A stretch of 45,753 nucleotides of DNA, taken from the IMG/VR virus record IMGVR_UViG_2061766007_003026. One strand, 5' to 3'. The notes under the pieces are model-generated. The model was not told the origin of the DNA. It did no database searches and worked only from the letters and a program-made list of their open reading frames with translations. How positions within the stretch are numbered: the stretch's first letter is position 1; each line of letters begins with the position of its first letter. This DNA is from an uncultured virus (IMG/VR IMGVR_UViG_2061766007_003026). Taxonomy: Duplodnaviria; Heunggongvirae; Uroviricota; Caudoviricetes. Shown here piece after piece: positions 7,310 through 30,096 of this stretch. A program made the translations under genes and the position numbers.

Positions 7310-7623
7310 CCTGATATCCTTTCTTCGCTATTTTCGGTTTCGGCAACTATTGTGACGGATAGATACGGCATCATTACCACGCCAGTATTGACAATACCTC
7401 CTCTGTAAGGTTTTCCCTTGTAGGTTACTAGAGCAACATCTGGCTTGGCGTAAATGTCCGAATAGAGTTTAATCCGGGCTTCCTCGGGAAGATTCCGCAT
7501 ATCATCCAGTGTATGCGTATCTTCGCATCGCGTTTTGCACAGTATACGGCGAATGAAATGCAATGATATTGCAACGTAGCATGCAATGTATATATCTTCC
7601 AGTGTATTTTTCATTGTACACAT
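7306..7623 (-). CDS. Hypothetical protein
   Basis: 105-aa ORF coupled to 7055..7309. Confidence 0.55.
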   Translation of the reverse strand: MCTMKNTLEDIYIACYVAISLHFIRRILCKTRCEDTHTLDDMRNLPEEARIKLYSDIYAKPDVALVTYKGKPYRGGIVNTGVVMMPYLSVTIVAETENSEERISG

Positions 7624-7660
7624 ATGAAGAATTCATCCAATATTTTAATTNNNNNNNNNN

Positions 7661-7684
7661 CCGGTTCAAGTCCGACTTGGGAGA
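7661..7684 (+). tRNA. tRNA 3' fragment (5' part in gap)
   Basis: T-arm CGG-TTCAAGT-CCG plus acceptor strand; trailer CTA. Confidence 0.6.
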
Positions 7685-7696
7685 CTACAAAGGACT

Positions 7697-7729
7697 ATGA
7701 ATATGAAACGAAAATACAAACGATTATGA
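7697..7729 (+). CDS. 10-aa mini-ORF MNMKRKYKRL upstream of tRNA-Lys(TTT)
   Basis: AAGGA RBS; same length, position and CGA-TTA-TGA ending as 19769..19801. Confidence 0.6.
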   Translation: MNMKRKYKRL

Positions 7730-7759
7730 TGGTGACAACTGCCTTACCAGTTGCTAAAT

Positions 7760-7831
7760 GCGAGCTTAGTTTAACTGGTAGAATAGTGGACTTTTAATCC
7801 TCGGATGTGGAATCGTTCTCCGCAGCTCGCA
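7760..7831 (+). tRNA. tRNA-Lys(TTT), atypical T-loop ATCGTTC
   Basis: GCGAGCT/AGCTCGC acceptor, loop CT-TTT-AA. Confidence 0.85.
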
Positions 7832-7835
7832 CTTT

Positions 7836-7906
7836 GTACCTATATTGTAGTGGTAACAAGGCGGTCTTCCAAACCGCAATCGCCAGTTCGAACCTGGCTA
7901 GGTACT
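7836..7906 (+). tRNA. tRNA-Gly(TCC)
   Basis: Cloverleaf, U73; trailer CTA. Confidence 0.88.
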
Positions 7907-7915
7907 CTAATTTAT

Positions 7916-8000
7916 AGCTCTGTGGCGGAATTGGCAATACGCGGCGCACTCAAAATGCGTTGTCCGAAAGGACATGTGGGTTCGACTCCCACTTGAGCTA
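7916..8000 (+). tRNA. tRNA-Leu(CAA)
   Basis: Long variable arm, loop CT-CAA-AA; trailer CTA. Confidence 0.9.
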
Positions 8001-8009
8001 CTATTCTAT

Positions 8010-8093
8010 CGGCATGTGGAGTAACTGGTAGCCTCGCTAGATTCAGAGTCTAGTGGCCGAAAGGCCGTGAGGGTTCAAGTCCCTCTTTGCCGA
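8010..8093 (+). tRNA. tRNA-Leu(CAG)
   Basis: Long variable arm, loop TT-CAG-AG. Confidence 0.88.
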
Positions 8094-8135
8094 CGCTTTT
8101 ATAAGAAATGAAATAATTTAGGATATATAAACTGG

Positions 8136-8236
8136 TATATAGAACGGCTTGGTGGAACTCGTCGCTCTATACAAAACGAATTTTAGATGTCCTCGGTGTA
8201 TGCAGAGTTCCACAATATTGCTATACCGAGGACATT
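8136..8236 (+). promoter_or_regulatory. Two-hairpin kissing-loop leader RNA upstream of a homing endonuclease
   Basis: Loop GTGGAACTC pairs with loop GAGTTCCAC; homolog at 20978-21072. Confidence 0.75.
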
Positions 8237-8252
8237 CTTTATTGAGGTTTGT

Positions 8253-9437
8253 ATGTCTGCATCAAAACCATGTAATTGTCCTAAATGTGGAGCCCATTTT
8301 GAAAGTATATCTGCTATGAATCGGCATCGCATTGCGGTGCATGGTTTAAGTAAAATTGCTCAGAAGCCGTATAGTTGGGAATGTCCGATTTGCCATATAT
8401 TATGTAAGACATCCGCAGAATTACGTCGTCACCGTCCTACTGTACATGGAAAATATTGTTACCAGAGTAAATCTAGTAATGGTAGTTCGTTGCCTACATG
8501 GGCGTGTAAATATTGTGGCATCATAGTTAATTCTCGGCGTAAATTGTATGAGCATTATAAGGAATGTATTGAAAAGGAAAAACAACCGACCGATTCACGT
8601 GGTCGAGTTATTAATTATGACGGGTTACGTAAAAGTCAAGAAACTAAAAAACAACGCAAGGCATTAGGCGTATATAAACCACGCCTCGTATCAACGAGTA
8701 CAAGAGCTAAATTACGTGATTGTAGAAAGCAATATTTAGCAACCCATCGAGTTAAATATAATTGGACTGGACCACTAAATACATTAAGTTATGCAGAGCA
8801 ATATTTTTATGATATTGTTGAGAAGCGGTGCAAATTTATTCATTGGGTAAATAATTTACGTATCAGTTATTATAAATTGGATTTTGCAAACCTTGATACT
8901 AAAGTCTATTTTGAAGTTGATGGCGAACAACATTATGATGAATATGGATTATATCATGATAAGCAGCGTACCGAACGATTAGAACAATTTGGGTGGAAAT
9001 TAATTGGCAGAGTGCGATGGAAGCTGTTTTCTCGGTTATCTGACATTGAAAAACATGCATATATTGATACACTATTGAATGCCTTTATGTCGAATGAATA
9101 TCATACGATTGACTCATTACATGATTCTCCGACAGTTATTACGTCTAAACGGCAATTACAACATGCCCAACAACTCGCACAAGCTACACTAGAAGGCCGA
9201 GTTGATAAAAATGGGCATATACTTGGTAATGCTAACAGTATGGATGAATGGGTTCGTCGGAAGAATTTAATATTAACGTGTGGTGTTGATATTTCTAAAT
9301 TTGGGTGGGTTGAAAAGGTTATACGGTGTACTGGATTAACTAAACGAATGATTGAAAATACCTTAAAGAAATTTAATAAAGAATTTGATGGTAAATATTT
9401 TAGGCGTAAATATAATCCAGTTGACTGCAAACCATAA
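8253..9437 (+). CDS. Free-standing homing endonuclease: C2H2 zinc fingers plus DUF559/Vsr-like PD-(D/E)xK domain
   Basis: Three CxxC(...H) fingers; LDF...FEVDGEQH...R...GWKL motif; AT-rich; GAGG RBS before ATG 8253. Confidence 0.8.
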   Translation: MSASKPCNCPKCGAHFESISAMNRHRIAVHGLSKIAQKPYSWECPICHILCKTSAELRRHRPTVHGKYCYQSKSSNGSSLPTWACKYCGIIVNSRRKLYEHYKECIEKEKQPTDSRGRVINYDGLRKSQETKKQRKALGVYKPRLVSTSTRAKLRDCRKQYLATHRVKYNWTGPLNTLSYAEQYFYDIVEKRCKFIHWVNNLRISYYKLDFANLDTKVYFEVDGEQHYDEYGLYHDKQRTERLEQFGWKLIGRVRWKLFSRLSDIEKHAYIDTLLNAFMSNEYHTIDSLHDSPTVITSKRQLQHAQQLAQATLEGRVDKNGHILGNANSMDEWVRRKNLILTCGVDISKFGWVEKVIRCTGLTKRMIENTLKKFNKEFDGKYFRRKYNPVDCKP

Positions 9438-9454
9438 ATGAACTATATTTATTT

Positions 9455-9503
9455 TGAGCCGTGGTGCAATTGGTAGCACGCAAGATTTTGAGTCTTGATG
9501 TTG
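9455..9503 (+). tRNA. tRNA-Gln(TTG), 5' part (3' end in gap)
   Basis: D-arm and CAAGA-TT-TTG-AG-TCTTG. Confidence 0.8.
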
Positions 9504-9513
9504 NNNNNNNNNN

Positions 9514-9788
9514 CGTAGCGCGTTACCGCCGTTGTTTTCCCTTGTGCGGGAAAATCTTATCGAAACGCAAAATCCCGTGACTTATCCGGTACGGGAACCC
9601 GCCAGCACCTTACGATACCGGGAAACCCGGCACCCCGCCATATTGTACCTTAGGCGAGTCTGGAGCCTTGTAACCCTAAGGGGTGTCAGGCTGATGCTAC
9701 GTCCGGGAGCGTCCTCCCGGCTGGTCCTCAAACTTTGTCCCGTGCGTTGATTTAGCGCTCGCTTGCCGGCCTAGCAAGCCTATCAGGG
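9514..9788 (-). ncRNA. Central part of the large structured ncRNA candidate
   Basis: Overlaps 2541-2644 and (inverted) 10834-10882; shares a ~120-nt module with 16502-16641. Confidence 0.55.
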
Positions 9789-9798
9789 NNNNNNNNNN

Positions 9799-9990
9799 AG
9801 AGATATGCACTTGGTCCCGGGCTTTATTCCTCTCGCTTGACCCAGGCAACGACGTGCTACCGATTAAGCAGCAGCGGCGTAGGCGAATGCATTGTCAGCA
9901 TTTATCTTTTCGGTCCGTTTTTACGAAGCCACAGACCAACTTCGTGTGAGGTCTCCACAGTCCGATGCCTAGTCGAAACCAAGCACCCCC
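9799..9990 (-). ncRNA. ssrA: tmRNA, 5' half (allele; tag ADNAFAYAAAA)
   Basis: GGGGGTGCTTGGTTTCGAC start, resume context ATAAAT-GCT, tag ending AA-stop. Confidence 0.9.
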
Positions 9991-10007
9991 CGAAGAGATT
10001 TGCTTCA

Positions 10008-10079
10008 TCGGAGTAGCCGGATTCGAACCGACGACATTCTGCTCCCAAAGCAGACGCTCTACCAGGCTGAGCTACACTC
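10008..10079 (-). tRNA. tRNA-Pro(TGG) (first 2 nt in gap)
   Basis: Loop TT-TGG-GA, canonical arms. Confidence 0.88.
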
Positions 10080-10188
10080 NNNNNNNNNNACAGGGTAGCG
10101 TTTTTCCGATTTGCGCCAAAGTTAAACTGTAACTTCTGCCAATCACTTCATCGGGAAGCGATACATGGAACGCCTGCGCTACAAAATT

Positions 10189-10265
10189 GTGGCACTGAAA
10201 TCGAATCAGCAACACACGACTCCACCCATAGGGATATGCCGCCGCTCTACCATTGGCGTAACCAC
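10189..10265 (-). pseudogene. Degenerate tRNA-like element
   Basis: D-loop CAATGGTAGAGC and T-arm GCTGA-TTCGATT-TCAGT present; 5-bp acceptor, no canonical anticodon loop. Confidence 0.45.
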
Positions 10266-10322
10266 TTTCACGCCGGGGTTCCATGATTTGCAATGTTCCC
10301 CGCGCGCCGGGGAACACTACAC

Positions 10323-10643
10323 TTATTCTGGCGCCCTCACCAGGGTGCCTAAATTGCATCTGCCATGTTTCTTAGCAATCGTCTCCAGGCAGGCATCCCA
10401 CCTGCTGTCGCCGACTACCGAGGAAATCGACCACGCCCCGCAATCAGGGTCGTAATTCATGTCCTCCGTCAAGTATAGCTTGCACGACATGTTCGGGAAC
10501 GTACGCATCATGTTCTCGAACGCGACCATTTCCGCATACACGTCAGCGATTTTCGCCAGGTCGACGGACTCGTATACCGTATAGTTCACGCGCTTCTCGT
10601 CCTGGTAGAGTATCGCGTAATGTCTAGTCTCTTCGTTATCCAT
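10323..10643 (-). CDS. Hypothetical protein (allelic fragment at 10893-11069)
   Basis: 106-aa ORF; second copy nearly identical, mostly synonymous changes. Confidence 0.75.
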   Translation of the reverse strand: MDNEETRHYAILYQDEKRVNYTVYESVDLAKIADVYAEMVAFENMMRTFPNMSCKLYLTEDMNYDPDCGAWSISSVVGDSRWDACLETIAKKHGRCNLGTLVRAPE

Positions 10644-11072
10644 ATACTAAATCCCCTTGTTCTGCGGTCCCGCCAGGCTGTGCCTCTGCATCTCCGCCCT
10701 GGGCCTGTACATGTTGAGNNNNNNNNNNTGCAAATCGGAAAAACCCTACCGTGAAGTGGTGAAAGACATAAGCCATGTAAAGGTAGTTAGTTTGGCAGTG
10801 AGATGCTAGGTGGGAAAACTGCCCGTCACGGTCCCCTGATAGGCTTGCTAGGCCGGCAAGCGAGCGCTAAATCAACGCACGGNNNNNNNNNNGGTCAAGT
10901 ATAGCTTGCACGACATGTTCGGGAACGTATGCATCATGTTCTCGAACGCGACCATGTCCGCATACACGTCAGCGATGCTCGCCAGGTCGACGGACTCGTA
11001 TACCGTGTAGTTCACGCGCTTCTCGTCCTGGTAGAGTATCGCGTAATGTCTAGTCTCCTCGTTATCCATTTA

Positions 11073-11366
11073 CTAAATCCCCTTATTCTGCGGCCCCGCC
11101 AGGCTGTGCCTCTGCATCTCCGCCCTGGGCCTGTACATGTTGAGTTCCTTCAGTGTCTTCTCCAGGTCGGAGAACTTGCATTCGACAGAAGCGTTCCCGC
11201 TGGACGTCACCGTGGCGACCTCGCGCTTCATGTCGTACTTAATCCAGGTAACCTCCCCGGTCTCCGGGTTCACGTACCTGGTACTCTCCAGTTCCGACGC
11301 GTGCATGCCCTCGAGGTACCCTTCAACGTACCGGAACTTCCACACGGCAAATACCGATAAATCCAT
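11073..11366 (-). CDS. Hypothetical protein; homolog of 13117..13413
   Basis: WKFR[YF][VI]EGYL...CKF..LEKTLK.L.MYR...RHSLAGPQ shared; GAGG RBS. Confidence 0.8.
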   Translation of the reverse strand: MDLSVFAVWKFRYVEGYLEGMHASELESTRYVNPETGEVTWIKYDMKREVATVTSSGNASVECKFSDLEKTLKELNMYRPRAEMQRHSLAGPQNKGI

Positions 11367-11597
11367 ATAACTACCTCGTTTCGAGTTTATCCAGTGTCGG
11401 CCCGGCTGCCCGCCTCCTGGAGGGACTCCGTTGCAGGCGCTACCGCCGCGAATCTACTGGTGCCCTCATGGCCTTTCGACTTGTCGGCGACGTCTCTACC
11501 TACGCGACGGTGCATCCTGCCGGTATTTCCCCGGTTTCCCGGCGGGCGGCCGGAAAGAATGCGGATACAGGCGGGGATTCCCGGGAGTATCCGGTAG

Positions 11598-11670
11598 TAT
11601 CCCTGTCGTGACTCGAACACAAATCTACGGTTTAGGAAACCGTGGCTCTATCCGGTTGAGCTACAAGGAC
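11598..11670 (-). tRNA. tRNA-Arg(CCT)
   Basis: Loop TT-CCT-AA; trailer CTA. Confidence 0.88.
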
Positions 11671-11675
11671 ATATA

Positions 11676-11763
11676 TCGAGCTACGAGGAGTTGAACCTCT
11701 CCGCACCGCCCTGGTGTCTTTTACGCGGCCCGGGTTATGAGTCCGGCCCAAGGAAATAGCTCG
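11676..11763 (-). tRNA. Non-canonical tRNA-like gene, anticodon CAT, no D-arm, long variable arm
   Basis: Acceptor CGAGCTA/TAGCTCG, CCGGA-CT-CAT-AA-CCCGG, T-loop TTCAACT; D region reduced to TTTCCTTGGG. Confidence 0.55.
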
Positions 11764-11834
11764 TTTAGTTTTTTATAGAAGTGGCTCTCTTCTTCTGAAG
11801 TGTGCATACCGGTTAGCATGCACACTTCAAACTG

Positions 11835-12638
11835 TTAAACTTCATAGAGTTCCCCGGTAAATTCGGAGTATCTATAGAACTTGCACCCAAGCTTTTTCTT
11901 GATTGTGGCCTCACGGATAATGTCTTTCTCCGGTCGAGCCACACCCTCCAAATGATGCTTGTTCTCGTCATACTCGACCACGATATTGAGTTCTTTGTCA
12001 TATGCATCTATCGAATATCTATCTACCCGTATTTCGCCGCCGTTCATTGCATGGACCAGGTGCCAGCCGCGCTCGGCATTCAGCTTGTCAAAATAATTGC
12101 ATGCCTTGATGCTATACCTTGGGCCTCCCGCAGTTTTCTCGAGATATTGCATGGTAGAATCATGCATCTTCCGCTTGGTCTCTTCAGTATGCTTCAGTCC
12201 TGCAAACGTAGGCATCAATTCTCCATTGGCATATAGTGTTCTTGATGTTTCGGCATACTTGCGAACCCGGTCATCGGTAGACGCTGTCAGCCCCTTATTC
12301 CATGCTGAACGTGTTCCATTATGCACCGACTCATTGTATGCTATGCTATTACCCCGTAATATGTTATACGACCGAATATCCATGTTTGGATTTAGCTTGC
12401 ATAATCTTTCATGATTAACCAACGAGTTGCCACTCTTCCGTACATCCCCGCAAAACCTACATATAAACGGGCCTTCCGACTGGGTATATTTTCGCGGTCC
12501 CCTGTATCCGGGTCGCCCTATTAGTTTACCATCTTTATTACTCTGCTTGCCACAGAATATTCTCTTGCAATGGTCAGAGCAGAATCGCCCGCTTCCATAT
12601 GTTCCATCATGCTCGATGCCACATTGTTCACATGTCAT
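11835..12638 (-). CDS. Free-standing homing endonuclease-like protein (zinc fingers, NUMOD3-like KHTEETKRKM, PD-(D/E)xK-type IDAYD...VEYDE..H)
   Basis: Motifs in translation; GGAGGA RBS; tRNA 5'-half remnant upstream (12662-12704); hairpin downstream (11796-11829). Confidence 0.75.
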   Translation of the reverse strand: MTCEQCGIEHDGTYGSGRFCSDHCKRIFCGKQSNKDGKLIGRPGYRGPRKYTQSEGPFICRFCGDVRKSGNSLVNHERLCKLNPNMDIRSYNILRGNSIAYNESVHNGTRSAWNKGLTASTDDRVRKYAETSRTLYANGELMPTFAGLKHTEETKRKMHDSTMQYLEKTAGGPRYSIKACNYFDKLNAERGWHLVHAMNGGEIRVDRYSIDAYDKELNIVVEYDENKHHLEGVARPEKDIIREATIKKKLGCKFYRYSEFTGELYEV

Positions 12639-12907
12639 GGATAGTCCTCCGGTTTATATCACAAAACTATATCACCTTTGCTCTAACCGATTGAGCTAAA
12701 CCATTATTCTAAACTCGGTGCCCGGGGACGCCTTGAACTGCCTCCACCGACCGTTTTACTCCGCCAACTACCGGGTATACTGGCGGAAACCTTTCGTATA
12801 CATCAATGATGTTAACTGAAGGAACGGGCCCCTTGCCGTTTCATCATCCTCCCCAAGGGTGGACTCCACGGCCGTAAATTTCCCGGGTGCATAGGTATTG
12901 TTTCTAG

Positions 12908-12967
12908 TGTCACGGGGTGGAATCGAACCACCATCTCACCCCTGCTGCAGTCAGAGATGCGCTACCA
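12908..12967 (-). tRNA. Partial tRNA-like gene with 7-bp anticodon stem and loop ACTGCAG (allele of 13895..13971)
   Basis: ATCTCTG-ACTGCAG-CAGGGGT; same T-stem and acceptor strand as 13895; trailer CTA. Confidence 0.6.
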
Positions 12968-13116
12968 NNNNNNNNNNCCTTTAACCAGGCTACGTCTGCC
13001 ACTTCCGTCACAGTAATCGTTTCATTGTTTCTTCCGTTTCTGCTCACGCAGGAAACGCTTCAAAGCCCGCTCGAACGCGGGGTTTGACTTTAGTGATACG
13101 CCTTTCATTGATACCT

Positions 13117-13413
13117 CTACGGTTTCTCCTCGTCATGCTGCGGTCCGGCCAGGCTGTGTCTCTCGCCCAATGGCCGCTCCCGGTACATCCCGAGGTCCTT
13201 CAGTGTCTTTTCAAGTTCGCCGAACTTGCAGTCCAGCGTGAGGCCCTCCCGCTCGATAGTGGCGACATCCTTGGCGGTGTCATACCTAATCCATGCTGTA
13301 TCCGACGTCCGGTGGTCGACATACTTCGTGGTATGCACGTCGTACGCGTGCATATCCTGCAGGTACCCTTCGATAAACCTGAATTTCCATATAGAAAACG
13401 ACGTGATGTCCAT
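13117..13413 (-). CDS. Hypothetical protein; homolog of 11073..11366
   Basis: Clear amino-acid similarity; GGAG RBS; ATAAACT upstream. Confidence 0.8.
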   Translation of the reverse strand: MDITSFSIWKFRFIEGYLQDMHAYDVHTTKYVDHRTSDTAWIRYDTAKDVATIEREGLTLDCKFGELEKTLKDLGMYRERPLGERHSLAGPQHDEEKP

Positions 13414-13445
13414 AATTTACTCCAGTTACGAAGTTTATTCTGTAG

Positions 13446-13534
13446 AGGAGGGTACAGGATTCGAACCTGTGGGGGCTTTTTGGGCCCCTCCCCGTTAGCA
13501 CCGGGGTGCGATAGACCAACTCTGCCAACCCTCC
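13446..13534 (-). tRNA. tRNA-Ser(GCT)
   Basis: Long variable arm, loop GT-GCT-AA; trailer CTA. Confidence 0.88.
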
Positions 13535-13545
13535 TTATGTCTTAG

Positions 13546-13618
13546 TATCCCGACCACGACTCGAACGTGGAATCAGTCCTTAGGAGGGACTAGTTATATC
13601 CTGTTTAACTATCGAGAC
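13546..13618 (-). tRNA. tRNA-Arg(CCT)
   Basis: Loop CT-CCT-AA; trailer CTA. Confidence 0.9.
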
Positions 13619-13634
13619 AAGATGAGAAGCTTAG

Positions 13635-13708
13635 GGTGCACAGCCGGTTTCGAACCGACAACAGCCGGCTCCACAAGCCGGGGCTCTACCAGTTGAGCTA
13701 TGCGCACC
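13635..13708 (-). tRNA. tRNA-His(GTG)
   Basis: G-1:C73 encoded, loop TT-GTG-GA; trailer CTA. Confidence 0.92.
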
Positions 13709-13720
13709 ATGAAACTTTAG

Positions 13721-13796
13721 TACCTCCTCCAGGGCTCGAACCTGGGACCTCCGCGTTCGTAGCGCGACGCTCTAAATCCTACTGAGCTAAGGAGGC
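13721..13796 (-). tRNA. tRNA-Arg(ACG)
   Basis: Loop CT-ACG-AA; trailer CTA. Confidence 0.92.
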
Positions 13797-13806
13797 GAAA
13801 CAGTAG

Positions 13807-13880
13807 TGGACCGGCCTGGACTTGAACCAGGGACCAACGGGTTATGAGTCCGCCGCTCTAACCAGCTGAGCTACCGGTCC
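13807..13880 (-). tRNA. tRNA with CAT anticodon (Ile2-like or elongator Met)
   Basis: Canonical cloverleaf, loop CT-CAT-AA; trailer CTA. Confidence 0.88.
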
Positions 13881-13894
13881 AAAATTCCTGTTAG

Positions 13895-13971
13895 TGTCAC
13901 GGGGTGGATTCGAACCACCATCTCATGCCGGCTGCAGTCCAGGCATGCGCTACCAGTTAAGCTACCGCAAC
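13895..13971 (-). tRNA. Non-canonical tRNA with extended anticodon arm (loop ACTGCAG)
   Basis: Acceptor GTTGCGG/CCGTGAC, D-loop and T-arm present, ATGCC(T)GG-ACTGCAG-CCGGCAT; trailer CTA. Confidence 0.65.
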
Positions 13972-14019
13972 GTGGTGGGAACGGCGATATCCTAGCTTCT
14001 AGAACGCGTCATCGCCCGG

Positions 14020-14510
14020 TTCCCTCTCGGTGTCCTTGCAGGGACTGTACTCATTCCGCCGATGCGGAAACCATCCGGCTCACTCCCAACCGGCTAGGCC
14101 ACTGTAACCAGTGTGGCCAACGGGTCCTTAATGCTCCACGTTACCAGGACGTAGCCGCACTCTGTCTTGTTTTACGTCGTTTCGACGGGCGCACCCGACG
14201 TCGGAACTTGCCGGTGCATACCCGGCTCGTCCCTAATGGGCTCCCGCAATTTAAACCTAGGCTAATCACGGGTACACCCAAACTAGAATCTCGACGGCGC
14301 ATTACTGGACTATCCTTGACGCATTCCCAGCCTCTATACGCAACTTATGCTACTGCACTAGCCCCAAAGGATATACCTGCACGGGCTTACTTACCTCATC
14401 TCCGTCGAGACTTTTCAAACACACTCCCGGATATAGTGCCGGGCTATCACTTTACGCCACGAGGCCGGTACGCGGTCCTCGTTGCAACCCTTGCCCCGAA
14501 AGGGAGGGAA
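14020..14510 (-). ncRNA. OLE-like large structured RNA
   Basis: Closing stem TTCCCTC/GAGGGAA; ordered motifs AAGTCT, GTAAGTA, GTAGCAT, GTTGCGT, GGAATG, GGATAGTCC, TAGGTTTAAA recalled from the OLE 5' half; covarying allele at 15236-15548. Confidence 0.6.
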
Positions 14511-14517
14511 TGAAAAA

Positions 14518-14605
14518 TGGTGGTGCGGCTTTTTTCACGCCACTTAAGCCCACAGCACTGTTGCTAGCATTGTCGTGCCGGGTAGTTGCCAGCTACCATC
14601 TCACC
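14518..14605 (-). ncRNA. Small multi-stem RNA family A (also 15103-15171, 15560-15642, 15651-15720)
   Basis: Covarying 5-bp stem with 7-nt C[CTA]G[AG]CA[AC] loop in four copies. Confidence 0.6.
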
Positions 14606-14611
14606 ATGTAG

Positions 14612-14685
14612 TCGGAGTAGCGTGATTTGGACACGCGACCCTCGGTTCCCAAAACCGATGCTCTACCAGGCTGAGCTACACTCCG
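14612..14685 (-). tRNA. tRNA-Pro(TGG), T-loop TCCAAAT
   Basis: Loop TT-TGG-GA; trailer CTA. Confidence 0.88.
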
Positions 14686-14817
14686 GAAACCGCACGGGTC
14701 AGCCGTGTTAACCCGTCACGGCCTTTAGAGCGCCCCCGAATAGATTTGCGCTTTCTACCGGAGATATCGCGGTACTTACTCCGGAAACCCCGGTGGCTAC
14801 ACCAGGGAAATATCATC

Positions 14818-14892
14818 TGCCCCAGACCGGGGTCGAACCGGTAACCACCACCTTCGGAGAGTGGTACTCTAATCCAATTGAGCTACCGGGGC
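14818..14892 (-). tRNA. tRNA-Arg(CCG)
   Basis: Loop CT-CCG-AA. Confidence 0.88.
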
Positions 14893-15235
14893 TAAATTCT
14901 AGGTACCTCCCGGAGACAACCGGGAGGAACCACGGCGTTGCCTCCAGTGCAGGACTGGCGCATACCGCCAAGCACGTCCGCCTCCCGGTGTCCACATGGA
15001 ATCACCGGTGGCGTCAAGGGTTTGCCCGGTTGTCCCCGGCCGGGCGCCGGGAGCCTCCCGGTTGGCCCNNNNNNNNNNTACCCCGAAAGGAAGGGAATGA
15101 AAGACGCCGTCCTTTTATGACGTTTGGACGATTGGCTTGCGCCAAGAAGCTTGTCGGGCTCCATTCCGCGTAATTTAGTGGAGGTGAGGGGAGTCGAACC
15201 CCTGTCCTAAACGCCATTCCGTTTCNNNNNNNNNN

Positions 15236-15548
15236 GGGACTTTCCGGTGCATACTCGGGTCGTCCCTAATGGGCTCCACGCAATTTAAACCTAGGCTAAT
15301 CACGGGTACACCCAAACTAAGAGTCTCGCCGGCGCATTACTGGGCTATCCTTTACGCATTCCCAGCCGCTATTCCGCAACTTATGCTACTGCACTAGCCC
15401 CAAAAGGATATACCTTGGACGGGCTTACTTCCATCATCTCCGGCGATACCATTTAAACACACTCCCGGTTATAGTGCCGGGCTATCACTTTACGCCTCGT
15501 GGCCGGTACGCGGTCCGCGTGGCAACCCTTACCCCGAAAGGGCGGGAA
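15236..15548 (-). ncRNA. Second allele (5' part) of the OLE-like RNA
   Basis: Colinear with 14203-14510, with compensatory substitutions. Confidence 0.6.
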
Positions 15549-16022
15549 GAAAAAGAAAGTGGCGCGACTTTTTATGACGTTTGGCCCATTGTACAGTCCG
15601 CTAGCAGTGGAGTACAAGGAAATTGTCGGTTTCCATCTCGCCTTGTATAAGACGCTGTCCTTTTATGACGTTTGGACGATTGGCTTGCGCCAAGAAGCGT
15701 GTCTGGCTCCATTCCGCGTAATGTTGTCGGGGATACCGTTACTACGTGGGTTTCAACGCCACACGGCGTCCCCTGTGTCCCCGCACGGAGTAGTAGTCCG
15801 ATGGAGGAGCAGTAATGTTGTCCCCTGCCTTCGCGGACACCGGAACCACTCGAAACCGTATGTCCGTTCTACCCGTGCTGAAAGGGCGGTCCTACCGGCA
15901 GCAGGACTTGAAAATTAGTGCATGCCCGCGGTCCACCTTCATCCGCCAGTATTTAGTCACCCCGGACGTGACAATGGGCTCAGGAGCATCGGGAATGACC
16001 CGTACTCACATGCATGCAATAG

Positions 16023-16381
16023 TGGAGGTGAGGGGAGTCGAACCCCTGTCCTAAACGCCATTCCGTTTCAACCGTATCACAATCCATCGTTTTGGGCCCT
16101 GACCTGTTGCCCGGGGAGATGTATCCTTGAGGGGTCCTGGTCCAGTGTAAGATAGCCGGTCTACGACCAGTAACTCACGGCTAAATTCGGGACTTATCTA
16201 CTTGGTCCCGGGCTTTATTCATCCCACTTGGCCCGGGCAACGGCGTGCTACCGATTAAGCAGCAACGGCGTAGGCGAATGCATTGTCAGCATTTATCTTT
16301 TCGGTCCGTTTTTACGAAGCCACAGACCAACTTCGTGTGAGGTCTCCACAGTCCGATGCCCAGTCGAAACCAAGCACCCCC
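16023..16381 (-). ncRNA. ssrA: tmRNA, complete (tag ADNAFAYAVAA); 3' fragment of another allele at 15179-15225
   Basis: GGGGGTG/CACCTCC acceptor with G3:U70 and A73, T-loop TTCGACT, internal tag ORF; trailer CTA. Confidence 0.95.
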
Positions 16382-16387
16382 GAAGAG

Positions 16388-16460
16388 CTCCGGCTCGCCG
16401 GCTCGAACGGCGGACCCCATCATTACGAATGATGTGCTCTACCAACTGAGCTAAGCCGGA
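16388..16460 (-). tRNA. tRNA-Thr(CGT)
   Basis: Loop TT-CGT-AA. Confidence 0.88.
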
Positions 16461-16646
16461 AAAAGGTTCCGCTCACACACCCGGAGAGCGGAAATCCGTC
16501 CGCACCATACGATACCGGTGTTGCCCGGCACCCCGCCATATTGTACCTTAGGCAGGTCGGAACCCGTATAGCCGCTTTTTGCTACCAGGGGAGGTAACGG
16601 CGTCAGGGTGGAGCTACGTCCGGGAGCGTCCTCCCGGCTGGACTGG

Positions 16647-16820
16647 TGACACAGGCCCCGTATTTTGATGTTCGCGGGAAGTACCTGAACCTGGATGCAG
16701 AACAAGCGGCCTTGCTTGCGTCAACCCTTCTAATGATATTGGCGCATGCCCCGGTTCTTGATGTTCGAGCAGGAAGTACCTGAACCTGGATACATGTACA
16801 AGCGGCCTTGCTTGCGCCAA
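16647..16820 (-). repeat. Two tandem ~80-nt structured RNA units (family B)
   Basis: Shared core CGCAAGCAAGGCCGCTTGT...ATCCAGGTTCAGGTACTTCC...CGAACATCAA; terminal stems GGCGCA/TGCGCC vs GACGCA/TGTGTC. Confidence 0.65.
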
Positions 16821-16832
16821 AAGTTTCTGTAG

Positions 16833-16908
16833 TGTCCCGGACAGGATTCGAACCTGCGACCTCCACCTTCGGAGGGTGGCACTCTGAATCCGGCTGAGCT
16901 ACCGGGAC
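16833..16908 (-). tRNA. tRNA-Arg(CCG)
   Basis: Loop CT-CCG-AA; trailer CTA. Confidence 0.92.
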
Positions 16909-16920
16909 TTAAAATAAGAT

Positions 16921-17169
16921 GCGTACCCGGGAAGTAAGTCAACCATCAAACGAGGAACTTCGTTTGGGCACGCAAATTCGTGTACGCGGATTGGCACCAA
17001 TCATCAACCCACAACGAAGAATACGTCCGGGTACACAATAAAAACGACACTGGCGGTAAATCGGTGTTGCAGACCAAGCTTCAGATAGGAACCGCCTTGG
17101 TGTCTAAAAAGCGGGCGCGGGGAGTAAGTCACTGATGTTGGAAGTTTCAATAGGAACTCCCTTTGCGCC
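16921..17169 (-). repeat. Three ~55-nt stem-bulge-stem RNA units (family C: 16921-16973, 17046-17104, 17114-17169)
   Basis: Stem-[AC]AA-stem(GT)-TCCT...GA[CT]TT-(AC)stem, stems differ in sequence but pair. Confidence 0.6.
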
Positions 17170-17178
17170 TAAAAGTAT

Positions 17179-17461
17179 GACACAGCCGTCTCCCGCGAGA
17201 ATCACGCCGGGCCTTCCGTGACTTTCGTTAATTCCCCGTCACGGGTCGGCCCACGGGATTTCATGTTCGGCCGTTACCCTAGAGCACATACCGGAAACAG
17301 GGACTGAGTCCACCAGCTTCCGGAGACCACCTTCTCTATGCCGCCAAGTGCGTCCTAACACATGGCATCATTTTTGCTGACCCCCGTAGAGCGTCCGCCG
17401 GAAAATTATCCGGCGGCAGGAACATGCTCTCGGGCGGTTCGCCTCCCCGGGCGACTGTGTC
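17179..17461 (-). ncRNA. ~283-nt structured RNA candidate
   Basis: Closing stem GACACAGTCG/CGGCTGTGTC, multiple internal hairpins, no credible ORF. Confidence 0.5.
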
Positions 17462-17480
17462 TTTAAAGGTTTGCCGTCCC

Positions 17481-17570
17481 AATCTACGGCCGGAATCGAA
17501 CCGGCGTCTCCCGGCCTGGTTAGCCGGGCGCTCTGACGAGGCCTCGTCCACCTTGCTAAGCTACGTGGCC
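17481..17570 (-). pseudogene. tRNA-like element with a hairpin inserted in the D-loop, enlarged anticodon loop and broken acceptor
   Basis: TAGCTTAG...AGAGC, GACGAGGCCTCGTC insert, T-arm GCCGG-TTCGATT-CCGGC. Confidence 0.5.
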
Positions 17571-17694
17571 ATGGGAACGGCGGTCATTTTCTATAGGTAC
17601 CAAACGGTTTTGCTGGTGCGTCGGGGCCCTAATCCGAAAATGACTTAATAGCGCCGCGCCGGGGACGTCTCCCCGGCACTTCCGTCGCAATCAA

Positions 17695-17770
17695 CAGGAC
17701 AGAACCGGACTCGAACCGGTGTCCCGGGTTGTTTCCGCCCGAGCTCTACCTCCTGAGCTTACCCACCCAG
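17695..17770 (-). pseudogene. Degenerate tRNA-like element
   Basis: AGCTCAGGAGGTAGAGC and ACCGG-TTCGAGT-CCGGT intact; G:U-rich acceptor, 9-nt anticodon loop. Confidence 0.45.
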
Positions 17771-17793
17771 TCTTAGCGACGGCAAAATCATAG

Positions 17794-17898
17794 TTGCCAA
17801 ACCAGGACTCGAACCTGGACGCCCTTTCGCGCGAGGACCGGGGACTTGCATTCCCCTGCGTCTAACGGCATCGTCGATGCACTTTCCGCCATTTGGCA
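17794..17898 (-). tRNA. Leu-type tRNA body with GCA (Cys) anticodon and a D-loop hairpin insertion
   Basis: Perfect acceptor TGCCAAA/TTTGGCA, A73, long variable arm, GGGGA-AT-GCA-AG-TCCCC; trailer CTA. Confidence 0.7.
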
Positions 17899-17974
17899 AT
17901 GAACAATAACGCAGGTCCCCAGTGTTCCCAAAGGTGAACGTCGGAACAACCGGGGGCCTGGTTTGAAACTATAG

Positions 17975-18047
17975 TAGCGGGAGTCGGACTCGAACCGACG
18001 ACCTCGAGGTTATGGGCCTCGCGAGCTACCAACTGCTCCATCCCGCG
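17975..18047 (-). tRNA. Initiator tRNA-fMet(CAT)
   Basis: C1:U72 mismatch, CGCGGGATGGAGCAG start; trailer CTA. Confidence 0.9.
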
Positions 18048-18057
18048 ATAAATATCG

Positions 18058-18130
18058 TAGCGATGCCGGGATTCGAACCCGAGTTCCAGGAATGAAAATC
18101 CTGTGTCCTAGGCCTCTAGACGACATCGCC
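18058..18130 (-). tRNA. tRNA-Glu(TTC)
   Basis: Loop TT-TTC-AT. Confidence 0.9.
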
Positions 18131-18446
18131 ATGCGAACGGTGTGAGCGGGACGGGGGACCTCGATACAACCAAAAAGGAGAAGGGTAATGGAACTAACCC
18201 TATACATCCGCCCGTCCCGGCTCACGCCGAACTCATTAGTTAATTTCCCTTGTCTTCCTGAGCAGAAGACACCTCCCGGTTGCGAACCCGGGCGCACTCA
18301 CGTTTATGCTAAAGGTATCTCACTACGCCAAGTGCGTAGCTTCGGGCGGGAAGCCTCCCGCCGGGGTAAGATTTCGTAAAACCTTCAAAATGCGAGTGGA
18401 CTATCGTTGTCCACAACGCGCAGTTTAACCTGAACTGCAAAGGAAA

Positions 18447-18490
18447 CGCATCCGAACTGTCAATCTTCTGGGGAACCTCACGGGCTTCCC
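18447..18490 (-). promoter_or_regulatory. Hairpin + AGATTGACAGTTCGGATGCG element (second copy 21657-21700), boxB/boxA-like
   Basis: 20-nt exact repeat 3' of hairpins of unrelated sequence; this copy lies just downstream of the promoter at 18498. Confidence 0.5.
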
Positions 18491-18629
18491 GGTGTACCAA
18501 ATATAGCAATTTTCTGCGAAAACGTCAACCTGGTGGTTTTTGTTTATATCTTGGTACGATATTCTTGCTAACCAAATATAGCAAAAATCGACCCGAGTGG
18601 AGTCCTTTCTGCTAAACCTGGTCAAATAG

Positions 18630-18703
18630 AGCACTCGGAGGGACTCGAACCCCCGCATGGGGGCTTTGCAGGCCCCCGCCTTAATCCACTTGGCTACGAG
18701 TGC
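18630..18703 (-). tRNA. tRNA-Cys(GCA)
   Basis: U73, loop CT-GCA-AA; trailer CTA. Confidence 0.92.
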
Positions 18704-18709
18704 GTATAG

Positions 18710-18791
18710 TGTCGGGAACAGGACTTGAACCTGCACGAGTTTCCCCACTGGCCTCTCAGACCAGCGCGTCTACCAATTCCACCACCCCGAC
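18710..18791 (-). tRNA. tRNA-Leu(GAG)
   Basis: Long variable arm; trailer CTA. Confidence 0.92.
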
Positions 18792-18801
18792 ATATCCCGG
18801 G

Positions 18802-19239
18802 TCATCCCCGGAAAAGCTGGTACTTTCTGCTGAGTGCATGGCTCACGTCGTCCGGCAGCGGCCTAAACCATATACCCACCCTACAGTAGCCGTTGCCGTT
18901 CTCGTCGGTCGACTCCGGGGTAAGCTCGGTAAGACACGCGTCGTCTATGAAGCCGTAGTCTGCATCCTTGACAAGGCCGAGTTCCTTGGCGACTTCCTCC
19001 ACCTTCATGAGGTGGGTGAGGTTCTTCGCCTCGCACACGGTCTTCACGAACAGCCCGCGGACATACTCGTCCATCGTGGCTGAATCCAGTTCGAACTTGA
19101 CGGAGTATGAGTCGCCTTCCTTCGTCGCACTTCGGGAGATGAGGCGTGTCCAGAAACCTTCGGCGCAATGGGCTACCATCGCCGAAAGCTTACCCTTGGA
19201 CAGGTCCAGGTCCTTGCGAATTATGAAGAGTCTTCTCAT
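18802..19239 (-). CDS. pth2: Peptidyl-tRNA hydrolase, Pth2 family
   Basis: IIRKDLDLSKGKLSAMVAH, KTVC, IDDACLTEL, GIWFRP...YQLF match Pth2 motifs; GGAGGA RBS. Confidence 0.88.
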   Translation of the reverse strand: MRRLFIIRKDLDLSKGKLSAMVAHCAEGFWTRLISRSATKEGDSYSVKFELDSATMDEYVRGLFVKTVCEAKNLTHLMKVEEVAKELGLVKDADYGFIDDACLTELTPESTDENGNGYCRVGIWFRPLPDDVSHALSRKYQLFRG

Positions 19240-19258
19240 ATATCCTCCGATGTCTTAG

Positions 19259-19340
19259 TCCCGCAGGCAGGACTCGAACCTGCACACCTTTCGGCATGCG
19301 CTCCTAAGGCGCACGCGTCTACCAGTTCCGCCACTGCGGG
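19259..19340 (-). tRNA. tRNA-Leu(TAG)
   Basis: Long variable arm, loop CT-TAG-GA; trailer CTA. Confidence 0.92.
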
Positions 19341-19343
19341 ATA

Positions 19344-19414
19344 TTGGCCAACCAGGTCTCGAACCCAGCCCTGGTGACTCAAAATCACCCGTGCTACCGC
19401 TACACCATAAGCCA
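19344..19414 (-). tRNA. tRNA-Gln(TTG)
   Basis: U1:A72, loop TT-TTG-AG. Confidence 0.85.
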
Positions 19415-19418
19415 ATTA

Positions 19419-19492
19419 TGGCGACACCAAGACTCGAACTTGGAACCAACAGATTAGAAATCTGTCGCTCTAATCCATTGAGCTATGCCGTC
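19419..19492 (-). tRNA. tRNA-Arg(TCT)
   Basis: Loop TT-TCT-AA. Confidence 0.88.
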
Positions 19493-19502
19493 AATCGTTT
19501 AG

Positions 19503-19578
19503 TCCCCGGAGAAGGAATCGAACCTTCAGATGTCGGCGATTTTGAGTCGCCCGCCTATGCCAGTTCGGCTACCCGGGG
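19503..19578 (-). tRNA. tRNA with CAA (Leu) anticodon but short variable region
   Basis: GGCGA-CT-CAA-AA-TCGCC; variable region only GACATCT; trailer CTA. Confidence 0.8.
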
Positions 19579-19584
19579 ATGATA

Positions 19585-19656
19585 AGCGAATATCCGACAA
19601 CGATTCGGAAACTACAGCTTGGAGGGCTGTCGTGTTGCCAATTACACCATATTCGC
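19585..19656 (-). tRNA. tRNA-Gly(TCC), C33 and T-loop ATCGTTG
   Basis: GCGAATA/TATTCGC, U73, loop CC-TCC-AA. Confidence 0.8.
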
Positions 19657-19660
19657 ATAG

Positions 19661-19732
19661 TGCGGGTGGGGAATTTCGAAATCCCGACCCACGTATTAAA
19701 AGTACGTTGCTCTTCCTCTGAGCTACACCCGC
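19661..19732 (-). tRNA. tRNA-Lys(TTT)
   Basis: Loop CT-TTT-AA; trailer CTA. Confidence 0.88.
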
Positions 19733-19768
19733 AGAGTGCAGTTGATAAGAGCATGGCAACTGCAACCA

Positions 19769-19801
19769 TCATAATCGGGTGCGTTTAAGAATCTTCTTCA
19801 T
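19769..19801 (-). CDS. 10-aa mini-ORF MKKILKRTRL upstream of tRNA-Lys(TTT)
   Basis: AGGAGGT RBS; counterpart of 7697..7729. Confidence 0.6.
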   Translation of the reverse strand: MKKILKRTRL

Positions 19802-19816
19802 CGTGTGTACCTCCTA

Positions 19817-19900
19817 TCGGCGATATCGGGCTCGAACCGATACGCACGCAAGTGCCCCGGATTTTAAGACCGGGTTGTCTACCTATTCCAGCAATCGCCG
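19817..19900 (-). tRNA. tRNA-Leu(TAA)
   Basis: Long variable arm, loop CT-TAA-AA. Confidence 0.88.
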
Positions 19901-19997: not shown

Positions 19998-20960
19998 TTA
20001 AATAATTCTATTAGATTTTCGCCGATGCACCACCGACTTCAACTCATCAAAATGTTCAACAGTTTTATATATTTGCTGACGAGTCAAATCAGTGGTAGCG
20101 GCCACTTTAGACACCCATCCGGGTTTAGTCAAATCAACACCACTATTGAGTATTTTATTCTTTCTGTTATTCCACTCGGCTTTGGTTAATTTTCGAACGC
20201 AATCCCAGCCTAAAACGTTTTGTTCAACACCCAGCTGACGTCTCCGTTGCTTAGCTTCTTCAAGGCGTTCTTTATGGGTTTTGTATAGCGGAACAGTTAT
20301 ATCACCGCATCCAGATAAAAATTTGTCCAACATCGCCTCAAATTCTTGCTTATGAGTCAGTATATATCCCCATTTTATCCGTAATACTAGCCAACCGTCG
20401 TTATGTAACAACTTATCCTTCTTCTCATCGCTTTTTTGCTGTTTCTCATATCTATGCAAATCACCATCGAGTTCTATACACAAGCGTTTATCTGGCCACG
20501 AAAAATCTAGGTAATAACCATGAAAGGGCAATTCGGTCTTATAGTCTACATTCTCAGTCCATCCATATTTATTGAATAACAGCCCAATTAGCCACAACTC
20601 TGGGTATGAATGCTTAACGTATTTTCTATTCTGATACGATGGAGCAATCCCTAATTCATGACGTCGTTTCATCCGTTCAGAGCATTTAGCACGAAATTCG
20701 GGTGTTTGTGTAAATCCTCGACTTCCGGGTTTATTCGGCTTTCTATTGGGGTTATGTTTACACCGTAATTCGTGATTTGCAATGCCACTCTTAGTCGTAT
20801 TCCAGGTAGTTCCACAATATTGACACGTCCGGGCAGCAATTACACATGCCACTGTTTTTCCATCAATGTGATGACAATCTAGCTTATGTTGTTGTAATTG
20901 TCGACGAGATTTTAAAATTTCTTGACAATACGGGCATTTCCATTCATAATGTAATCTCAT
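19998..20960 (-). CDS. Free-standing homing endonuclease (zinc fingers plus DUF559/Vsr-like domain); homolog of 8253..9437
   Basis: YLDF...IELDGDLH...D..L...GWLVLRIKW; shared C-terminal W..RKN.IL..GVD..K.GWV.KV domain. Confidence 0.8.
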   Translation of the reverse strand: MRLHYEWKCPYCQEILKSRRQLQQHKLDCHHIDGKTVACVIAARTCQYCGTTWNTTKSGIANHELRCKHNPNRKPNKPGSRGFTQTPEFRAKCSERMKRRHELGIAPSYQNRKYVKHSYPELWLIGLLFNKYGWTENVDYKTELPFHGYYLDFSWPDKRLCIELDGDLHRYEKQQKSDEKKDKLLHNDGWLVLRIKWGYILTHKQEFEAMLDKFLSGCGDITVPLYKTHKERLEEAKQRRRQLGVEQNVLGWDCVRKLTKAEWNNRKNKILNSGVDLTKPGWVSKVAATTDLTRQQIYKTVEHFDELKSVVHRRKSNRII

Positions 20961-20977
20961 AATAAACCCCAATAAAG

Positions 20978-22727: not shown

Positions 22728-22750
22728 CCTTATCCAATATAGTATTTTTA

Positions 22751-22804
22751 TGCAAGCTGCGGAGAACGATTCCACATCCGAGGATTAAAAGTCCACTATT
22801 CTAC
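22751..22804 (-). tRNA. tRNA-Lys(TTT), 3' part; allele of 7760..7831
   Basis: Identical to 7778-7831 except one acceptor-stem base. Confidence 0.8.
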
Positions 22805-30033: not shown

Positions 30034-30096
30034 CCGCTTCGATATCCATAGTTTATGCGGCACCCGAATAAACTGCAATAAAACAGGGGTATAATT

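Follow-up and report, generated by a model that had tools for sequence, protein, structure and literature searches.

The window analysed here, a whole stretch of 45,753 nucleotides (nt) from an uncultured Caudoviricetes virus (IMG/VR record IMGVR_UViG_2061766007_003026), carries two copies of a small module made of a Shine-Dalgarno (SD) or SD-like sequence, a very short open reading frame (mini-ORF) and a hairpin, each directly ahead of a tRNA-Lys(UUU) gene. Judged from sequence comparison, this module is a fixed element between tRNA-Leu(UAA) and tRNA-Lys(UUU) in a clade of giant rumen phages. We found it in 15 distinct forms on uncultured rumen-type phage contigs, some of them about 350 kb long. 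It is always directly upstream of tRNA-Lys(UUU) and lies downstream of tRNA-Leu(UAA) in 14 of the 15 forms, copy 1 of the window being the exception. An earlier note on the same DNA had described the two mini-ORFs with a common CGA-TTA-TGA-TGGT end, a hairpin after each, and a tRNA-Lys(UUU)-tRNA-Gly(UCC) pair downstream. Direct reading of the sequence bore out the positions and all of these features, which are as follows.

7661..7684, plus strand: 3' remnant of tRNA-Leu(taa), consisting of the T-arm and the 3' strand of the acceptor stem; its sequence exactly matches the corresponding end of the L220 tRNA-Leu(taa)
7690..7694, plus strand: SD-like AAGGA of copy 1
7697..7729, plus strand: copy 1 mini-ORF read from the alternative in-frame start ATG 7697, MNMKRKYKRL and stop (TGA 7727-7729)
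7703..7729, plus strand: copy 1 mini-ORF, family A, MKRKYKRL and stop, the start matching family A relatives
7721..7733, plus strand: copy 1 invariant core CGATTATGATGGT (two final sense codons, stop and 4 nt beyond)
7736..7753, plus strand: predicted copy 1 RNA hairpin, 6-bp stem CAACTG (7736-7741) / CAGTTG (7748-7753), 6-nt loop CCTTAC
7760..7832, plus strand: tRNA-Lys(ttt), copy 1 type (ARAGORN, Rfam)
7836..7907, plus strand: tRNA-Gly(tcc), 3' of the copy 1 tRNA-Lys (ARAGORN, Rfam)
19817..19900, minus strand: tRNA-Leu(taa), CCA not encoded, discriminator base 1 nt ahead of the copy 2 SD
19810..19815, minus strand: copy 2 SD AGGAGG, 8 nt ahead of the ATG
19769..19801, minus strand: copy 2 mini-ORF, family B, MKKILKRTRL and stop (ATG 19801, TGA 19771-19769)
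19765..19777, minus strand: copy 2 invariant core CGATTATGATGGT
19737..19764, minus strand: predicted copy 2 RNA hairpin, 8-bp stem TGCAGTTG (19764-19757) / CAACTGCA (19744-19737), 12-nt loop
19660..19732, minus strand: tRNA-Lys(ttt), copy 2 type, 68% identical to the copy 1 type (ARAGORN, Rfam)
19585..19656, minus strand: tRNA-Gly(tcc), 3' of the copy 2 tRNA-Lys (ARAGORN, Rfam)

After tRNA-Lys(ttt), the copy 1 array continues with Gly(tcc), Leu(caa) and Leu(cag), and the copy 2 array with Gly(tcc), Leu(caa), Arg(tct), Gln(ttg) and Leu(tag). The mean column identity of the two module stretches is 69%, and the 13-mer CGATTATGATGGT is unchanged. It is invariant, although the two tRNA-Lys genes share 68% of their bases. 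Upstream of copy 1, tRNA-Leu(taa) is represented by its final 24-34 nt only. Its 5' half gave no alignment in 7570-7650, before a run of N, and no tRNA was called there.

SD-led ORFs of 5-12 codons are common in the window (27 on the two strands), and therefore the case rests on relatives. A covariance model (R1) was built from the module. Run on the window with filters off, it recovered the two copies (92.4 and 70.2 bits) and gave no further match at E values of 10 or less. A search with the exact core pattern CGATTATGATGGTNNCANNTGC returned three stretches in the viral set, two of them in tRNA arrays, and 37 in metagenomes, of which 14 are in tRNA arrays and 23 are without a tRNA. The same pattern gave 19 stretches in bacterial and archaeal contigs taken at one genome per species, none beside a tRNA. 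We also used anchors set in the tRNAs and not in the module, which gave 13 viral loci from the tRNA-Lys anchor and 20 from the tRNA-Leu anchor. Among the former, two arrays have Leu(taa) directly upstream of Lys(ttt), and both carry the module; among the latter, one array carries it, in the same record as one of the tRNA-Lys-anchor arrays. The tRNA anchors thus yielded two Leu(taa)-Lys(ttt) arrays in three loci, L205 and L181 being in one record. The remaining anchor loci are different arrays or chance matches in which the module is absent. A relaxed pattern for the stop region contributed L219 and L220, and a search of 151 Fibrobacteraceae genomes contributed L235 as its sole true match.

In each of six related virus records (G001, G002, G005, G006, G007 and G008), the covariance model found one copy. 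Two of these records, of 348-355 kb, have a completeness of 91-93%. The model found no module in G003 and G004, two huge phages that are unrelated (best E 0.34). A blastn search of both arrays against 50,697 records of cultured phages matched single tRNAs only, never the spacer. A host origin was considered and rejected: none of the 19 stretches in the one-genome-per-species contigs stands beside a tRNA, and the lone Fibrobacteraceae match resembles a binned phage contig. Conservation of the ORF in relatives was one of the points on which the earlier note had staked its proposal, and the ORF is present in all 15 forms with the marks of a translated frame. Two further observations concern copy number. 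The window phage has two modules against one in the near-complete relatives, and copy 1, together with its Lys-Gly-Leu-Leu genes and the endonuclease-like gene at 8187-9437, resembles a cassette imported from a related phage.

The comparison supports translation of the mini-ORF as a cistron of 7-10 codons. Three peptide families were recognized: MKRK[Y/C/S]KRL (family A), MK[K/T]ILKRTRL (family B), and MKKLKRL and MKKLKLKRL (family C). All forms have GGAG or AAGGA 7-10 nt ahead of the ATG, the intervening bases being variable. The ORFs of 7, 8, 9 and 10 codons share one stop position inside the conserved core. Families A and B use TGA there; family C uses TAA, and its core, CGATTATAAAGGT, differs from CGATTATGATGGT at two bases. 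Of the base changes within families, seven are synonymous and three are not, whereas the synonymous share to be expected is 0.26 (binomial p = 0.0046, from small numbers and related sequences); examples are CTT to TTG, CGC to CGT and AAA to AAG. The region 3' of the stop is non-coding, with loops of 5, 6, 12 and 13 nt that break any frame.

Two other ways of reading the frame were rejected. An alternative code with TGA as a sense codon does not fit the second TGA one codon on in copy 1, the TAA of family C, or the 6 of 18 long ORFs that end in TGA. A second, coupled ORF with its start in ATGATG, or a signal peptide interrupted by a frameshift, does not fit the changes in loop length, which shift the frame, or the ATAAAG of family C.

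The same comparison bears on the start of copy 1. The earlier note had assigned a strong ribosome binding site to each copy; that is true of copy 2 (AGGAGG, 8-nt spacing), but copy 1 has the SD-like AAGGA, which is 2 nt from ATG 7697 and 8 nt from ATG 7703. In family A relatives, the start is at the position that corresponds to 7703 (MKRKCKRL, MKRKSKRL). Because of this spacing and of the relatives' starts, ATG 7703 is likely the start of copy 1 and MKRKYKRL its likely product, of 8 codons rather than 10. The 33-nt length common to both copies holds when they are read from ATG 7697 and ATG 19801, and is therefore probably a coincidence. Ten codons are not a conserved feature as had been thought, since relatives carry 7-10.

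Selection on the hairpin is supported by compensatory changes. The six core stem pairs are intact in 15 of 15 distinct forms (first tested on 12); the second, 15-form alignment was fitted to the model and so is biased towards structure. Two core pairs change on both sides, with G-C/A-U in 4 cells, C-G/U-A in 7 cells and no unpaired cell. Paired cells amount to 90.8%, as compared to 5.6-56% when the partner is slid. Families A and C both show the A-U/G-C change, suggesting that it arose more than once. A single G-U pair, seen in L219, is compatible with RNA of the same strand as the tRNAs.

The stem starts 7-9 nt past the first base of the stop in all forms (9 nt in copy 1 and 7 nt in copy 2, with hairpins of -5.8 and -9.6 kcal/mol, respectively). 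Other spacings vary: 3-10 nt from hairpin to tRNA-Lys, 5-13 nt in the loop, and 1-11 nt from the 3' end of tRNA-Leu to the SD. Unvarying in the 15 forms are CGA-TTA, the T and A of the stop, GGT, and GCC at the end of the 5' arm and start of the loop. Lys, Leu and Arg codons elsewhere in the ORF do vary synonymously. When the pattern allowed any Arg and any Leu codon, CGA TTA was found in 4 of 4 matches, in a collection that has few relatives. The post-stop GGT and the arm-loop GCC (7731-7733 and 7741-7743 in copy 1) are 7 nt apart, or 8 nt in L185. In single-sequence folds the ORF region is predicted to be open.

The mini-ORFs are built largely from codons that are minor in this phage. In 18 long ORFs of the window, 26% of the Lys codons are AAA, 12% of the Arg codons are CGA and 10% of the Leu codons are TTA. 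AAA accounts for 8 of 10 Lys codons in the family consensus ORFs, and AAA-CGA-TTA, the codons before the stop in families A and C, are all minor. The reader of AAA is the tRNA immediately downstream, and that of TTA is the tRNA immediately upstream. The CTT and TTG codons of families B and C have their readers, Leu(gag) and Leu(caa), in the same arrays, and the reader of CGA, tRNA-Arg(acg), is elsewhere in the window. Each ORF has 3-4 Lys and 1-3 Leu codons among its 7-10, but the AT-rich composition of the spacer and the favoring of AAA next to the start codon could yield the same codon content.

The module keeps its place beside tRNA-Lys(UUU) and is more conserved than that gene: identities of module and tRNA-Lys are 0.86 vs. 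0.61 for W1 and L002, and 0.95 vs. 0.77 for W2 and L129. In L002 and L219, by contrast, tRNA-Lys is 0.99 identical and the module 0.79, with different peptide families. Modules and tRNA-Lys types have thus recombined, and their linkage is not a matter of hitch-hiking. The tRNA-Lys(UUU) genes of the clade are highly diverse, 72-94 nt long with enlarged D-loops and some with an extra small stem; diverse types follow the module in L002, L139, L154, L219, L220, L129, L142 and L185. ARAGORN missed L002 and called L139 'Met' and L154 'Asp', three genes that the Rfam tRNA model scores at 43-58 bits. This diversity may reflect an arms race over tRNA-Lys. In L125 the anticodon is CTT, and one other visible base differs from the copy 2 tRNA of the window.

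The reading that we prefer, with a probability of about 0.4, is that the module is a gauge: acting in cis and linked to pre-tRNA-Lys, it would register ribosome occupancy for the decoding of Lys, Arg and Leu. It would be transcribed together with the tRNAs, presumably in one transcription unit. Ribosomes would load at the SD just past the 3' end of tRNA-Leu and read AAA for Lys, CGA for Arg and UUA for Leu, all of them minor and ending in A, where they may pause. They would then arrive at the stop, around which the nucleotides themselves are frozen. The ribosomal mRNA channel spans roughly a dozen bases 3' of the A-site codon. With the stem 7-9 nt past the stop's first base, a ribosome on the last codons or terminating would therefore have to open the hairpin. 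A ribosome held earlier at a Lys codon, or RNA that is not translated, would leave it closed. The state of the hairpin would then set the maturation or survival of the downstream pre-tRNA-Lys.

tRNA-Lys(UUU) is the known target of the anticodon nuclease PrrC. A narrower version of the gauge, which we consider doubtful, is that it reports Lys/Arg/Leu decoding after, for example, a host anticodon nuclease has cut tRNA-Lys(UUU), the hairpin setting the maturation or survival of a replacement tRNA-Lys(UUU) that belongs to the phage and diversifies fast. It is similarly doubtful, as part of this version, that AAA, CGA and UUA matter as codons that need wobble-modified tRNAs, two of which adjoin the cistron. 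No anticodon nuclease or tRNA-repair gene was found among the ORFs scanned, and the link to PrrC serves as context only.

The idea of a decoding sensor had been put forward in the earlier note. The conserved ORF, the selected hairpin, the linkage to tRNA-Lys(UUU) and the minor codons speak for it, but several results weigh against it. No terminator-like site follows the hairpin at either copy, the bases after the stem not being U tracts. No conserved sigma-70 promoter was found, copy 1 having a weak match (9 of 12) and copy 2 none. Alternative pairings, of the ORF region with the leader and tRNA-Lys or of the 3' arm with tRNA-Lys, were no better than those of shuffled sequences (z -2.3 to +1.2). 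The lack of a terminator, a shared promoter and a significant alternative pairing excludes classical attenuation, and for the same reasons the output step is one that we infer. On single sequences the hairpin is weak (-5.8 to -9.7 kcal/mol, z -1.1 to -1.3, non-significant). The three peptide families come from a single phage clade and from related sequences, so diversity is low and the change counts are small. By the same loose test, an SD precedes only 6 of 15 long window ORFs. The GC content of the spacer is 0.37-0.43 vs. 0.52, and AT-richness alone could favor minor A-ending codons; AAA following ATG favors initiation anyway. Another tRNA-Lys(UUU)-like piece, the third in the window and resembling the type of copy 1 (about 22752-22804, minus strand, partly in a run of N), has no module upstream, and copy 1 lacks an intact upstream tRNA-Leu, so neither flank is strictly required.

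The third tRNA-Lys piece abuts the end of an 821-aa ORF. Behind it come a spacer and a homing-endonuclease gene (21924-22775, minus strand, phrog_655, E 6.9e-31) that L130 also has.

Two candidate pairings with tRNA-Lys were rejected. The arms of the hairpin (CARYTG) resemble the D-loop CAGYTGG and co-vary in family A. An attenuator-like switch between the 3' arm and the tRNA-Lys D-loop fails in that the relation is reversed in L181 and duplex energies are no better than those of shuffles. The other is a helix of CGCACCCG in the ORF with the 5' acceptor strand of tRNA-Lys. It appears in the minimum-free-energy folds of 6 of 8 family B forms, no better than in shuffles, is not in the folds of L142 and L185, and is absent from families A and C. 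Family B has six additional bases, CGCACC, and these give rise to CACCCG, a complement of GCGGGTG in that acceptor strand (in the window, 19775-19783 with 19726-19732, both minus strand; other family B loci also have it). In L142, a silent C-to-T change in the ORF fits the GCGGGTA of its tRNA.

The module would work most like a leader peptide, yet it fails two tests of an attenuator, those of alternative structures and of a terminator. Like the attenuators trpL, hisL, pheL, thrL and ilvL, it has a short SD-led ORF ahead of the gene that would be controlled, the ORF may be enriched in the codons that would be gauged, and the hairpin is placed so that ribosome position would decide its formation. 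Unlike them, it has one hairpin, with no terminator and no detectable antiterminator alternative in the module; its downstream gene is a tRNA, and it stands inside the tRNA array in 14 of 15 forms, not at the head. Attenuator leader ORFs are about 14-30 codons long, and the 7-10 codons of the module are much shorter. In the tRNA-punctuation model of mitochondria, tRNA processing releases the coding stretches between tRNAs. The module is likewise a coding stretch bounded on both sides by tRNAs, which processing would free. Unlike the mitochondrial case, it is a bacterial-type, SD-led phage frame with only 24-33 nt of coding sequence.

Such release would be central to the best-surviving rival of the cis-acting gauge, which is that the product is a cationic micropeptide acting in trans, made from a 75-85-nt mRNA that RNase Z and RNase P cut free, with the hairpin as a 3' stabilizer only. 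We consider this unlikely, and would say the same of its having as target some RNA, the ribosome or a host defence. The marks of translation apply to it equally. The make-up M-K-[K/R]...K-R-(T-R)-L, with 4-5 basic residues, is kept in all forms (5 of 8 residues are K/R in the copy 1 peptide and 5 of 10 in that of copy 2), and the window phage retains two different forms. The tRNAs, which have no encoded CCA, are so near the module (1-11 nt and 3-10 nt) that processing would free such an RNA. The tpr gene of E. coli is distal to its tRNAs and longer than the module peptide. It specifies a small, protamine-like protein on a tRNA transcript, that of tyrT (PMC3141248), and the product of the module would likewise be small and very basic. 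However, a micropeptide accounts neither for the freezing of synonymous sites in the two final codons and of the 4 nt past the stop, when other codons vary, nor for the fixed distance from stop to stem. Length and order of the residues differ among the families (7-10 residues), and the hairpin is weak as a block to exonucleases. A free-standing gene would need no strict adjacency to tRNA-Lys(UUU), yet this is kept through reshuffling.

The frozen nucleotides could instead mean that the spacer is not translated at all, the 13-mer and hairpin being a site for an endoribonuclease or RNA-binding factor that splits the tRNA precursor, and the ORF incidental. Conservation is indeed strongest in the nucleotides themselves, where a hairpin comes after single-stranded, AU-rich sequence, and some RNase E and RNase Y sites have this layout. 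At gathering score Rfam 15 has no family over the module, and besides tRNA and tmRNA (transfer-messenger RNA) none in the window. An untranslated site does not account for the SD distance, the ATG, a frame kept through three length changes, the switch from TGA to TAA, or the synonymous excess, and we find this explanation improbable.

A minigene effect appears very improbable to us. Here peptidyl-tRNA from drop-off would tie up the Leu-UAA, Arg-ICG and Lys-UUU tRNAs, and the phage peptidyl-tRNA hydrolase Pth2 and the phage tRNAs would set the balance. The module does have an SD, 7-10 codons and the minor CGA and UUA right before the stop, a Pth2 gene is in the same island (5 of 5 related records searched), and a tmRNA gene is nearby. 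The bar minigenes of lambda have two codons and, like synthetic minigenes, act by peptidyl-tRNA drop-off in a Pth-dependent way. The module resembles both in its phage-borne SD and its tiny ORF with rare codons before the stop, and a Pth gene is nearby. According to PMC2490762, translation is inhibited via peptidyl-tRNA by minigenes of 3-8 codons that carry rare Arg codons ahead of the stop; Pth counters this, and the effect declines with ORF length. The 7- and 8-codon forms are within that range; the 9- and 10-codon forms, reached in families B and C, are outside. Unlike bar minigenes, the module has a conserved hairpin and a fixed site between two tRNA genes, and a minigene effect explains neither the hairpin nor the fixed spacing. 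There is no clear gain in sequestering tRNAs that the phage itself supplies, and the linkage to Pth2 is loose, at 0.5 to 33 kb from the module in relatives.

Least probable is that the module has no RNA function and is the relic of a gene 5' end (lipoprotein-like, with a basic stretch and a hydrophobic one in a different frame: the ATGATG frame of copy 2 reads MMVAVAMLLSTALCGC, which with MKKILKRTRL resembles a signal peptide) or a DNA-level promoter or recombination/homing site (homing-endonuclease-like genes flank both arrays, and copy 1 has its weak promoter-like match). This is already largely refuted by the loss of the second frame (loops of 5, 6, 12 and 13 nt) and of ATGATG in family C, by conservation across deeply diverged arrays, by the absence of a promoter-like site in copy 2, and by an inverted repeat whose variable spacing and compensatory changes fit an RNA stem.

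As a whole, the window is an island of tRNA genes in a large phage; ARAGORN gives 37 tRNA genes and a tmRNA, and Rfam 15 gives 36 tRNA matches and the tmRNA. Its other features relevant here are the following.

18802..19239, minus strand: Pth2 peptidyl-tRNA hydrolase gene (PF01981, E 5.6e-10), same island and strand as copy 2 and downstream of it
16022..16381, minus strand: tmRNA, tag ADNAFAYAVAA
8187..9437, plus strand, and 19998..20972, minus strand: paralogous C2H2 zinc finger and DUF559/Vsr-like endonuclease genes at the edges of the module-bearing arrays

The C2H2/DUF559 genes look like homing endonucleases. The Pth2 homologue is on the strand of the module in all five related records; in G005 it is split, and about 160 nt separate the part for residues 1-39 from that for residues 43-145. 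A TnpB-like ORF (5605-6546, plus strand; Cas12f1-like TNB domain, E 5.2e-12, PHROG transposase) adjoins tRNA-Lys(ctt). The NAD-dependent DNA ligase is split into an adenylation and OB-fold part and a C-terminal part with BRCT (26195-27154 and 27302-28519, both minus strand). Contigs of four RNA runs cover only 19250-19416 of the window, where two other tRNAs lie. A protein with the Fibrobacter succinogenes major paralogous domain (Fib_succ_major; 28582-30078, minus strand, E 3.7e-17) is encoded in the window, and L235 is a module-bearing tRNA array on contig 18 of G068, a Fibrobacteraceae genome bin. Together, these two findings hint at Fibrobacter as the host of the phage.

Full-text searches, with subscription journals largely outside their reach, gave no report of a translated mini-ORF between phage tRNA genes, and we know of no work on how a phage controls its own tRNA supply. 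Phage tRNA genes have come to be regarded as a means of countering defences that cut tRNAs, tRNA-Lys(UUU) being a main target of these (PMC10264068, PMC11464382). In the narrower version of the gauge, leader-peptide logic would be applied to tRNA processing and not to transcription termination. A translated sensor in a tRNA operon would be a new control layer, in a compact 80-nt part. Even as a mere micropeptide gene, the module would be a selected gene of 7-10 codons that is freed by tRNA processing and is among the shortest known, of a size that escapes gene callers.

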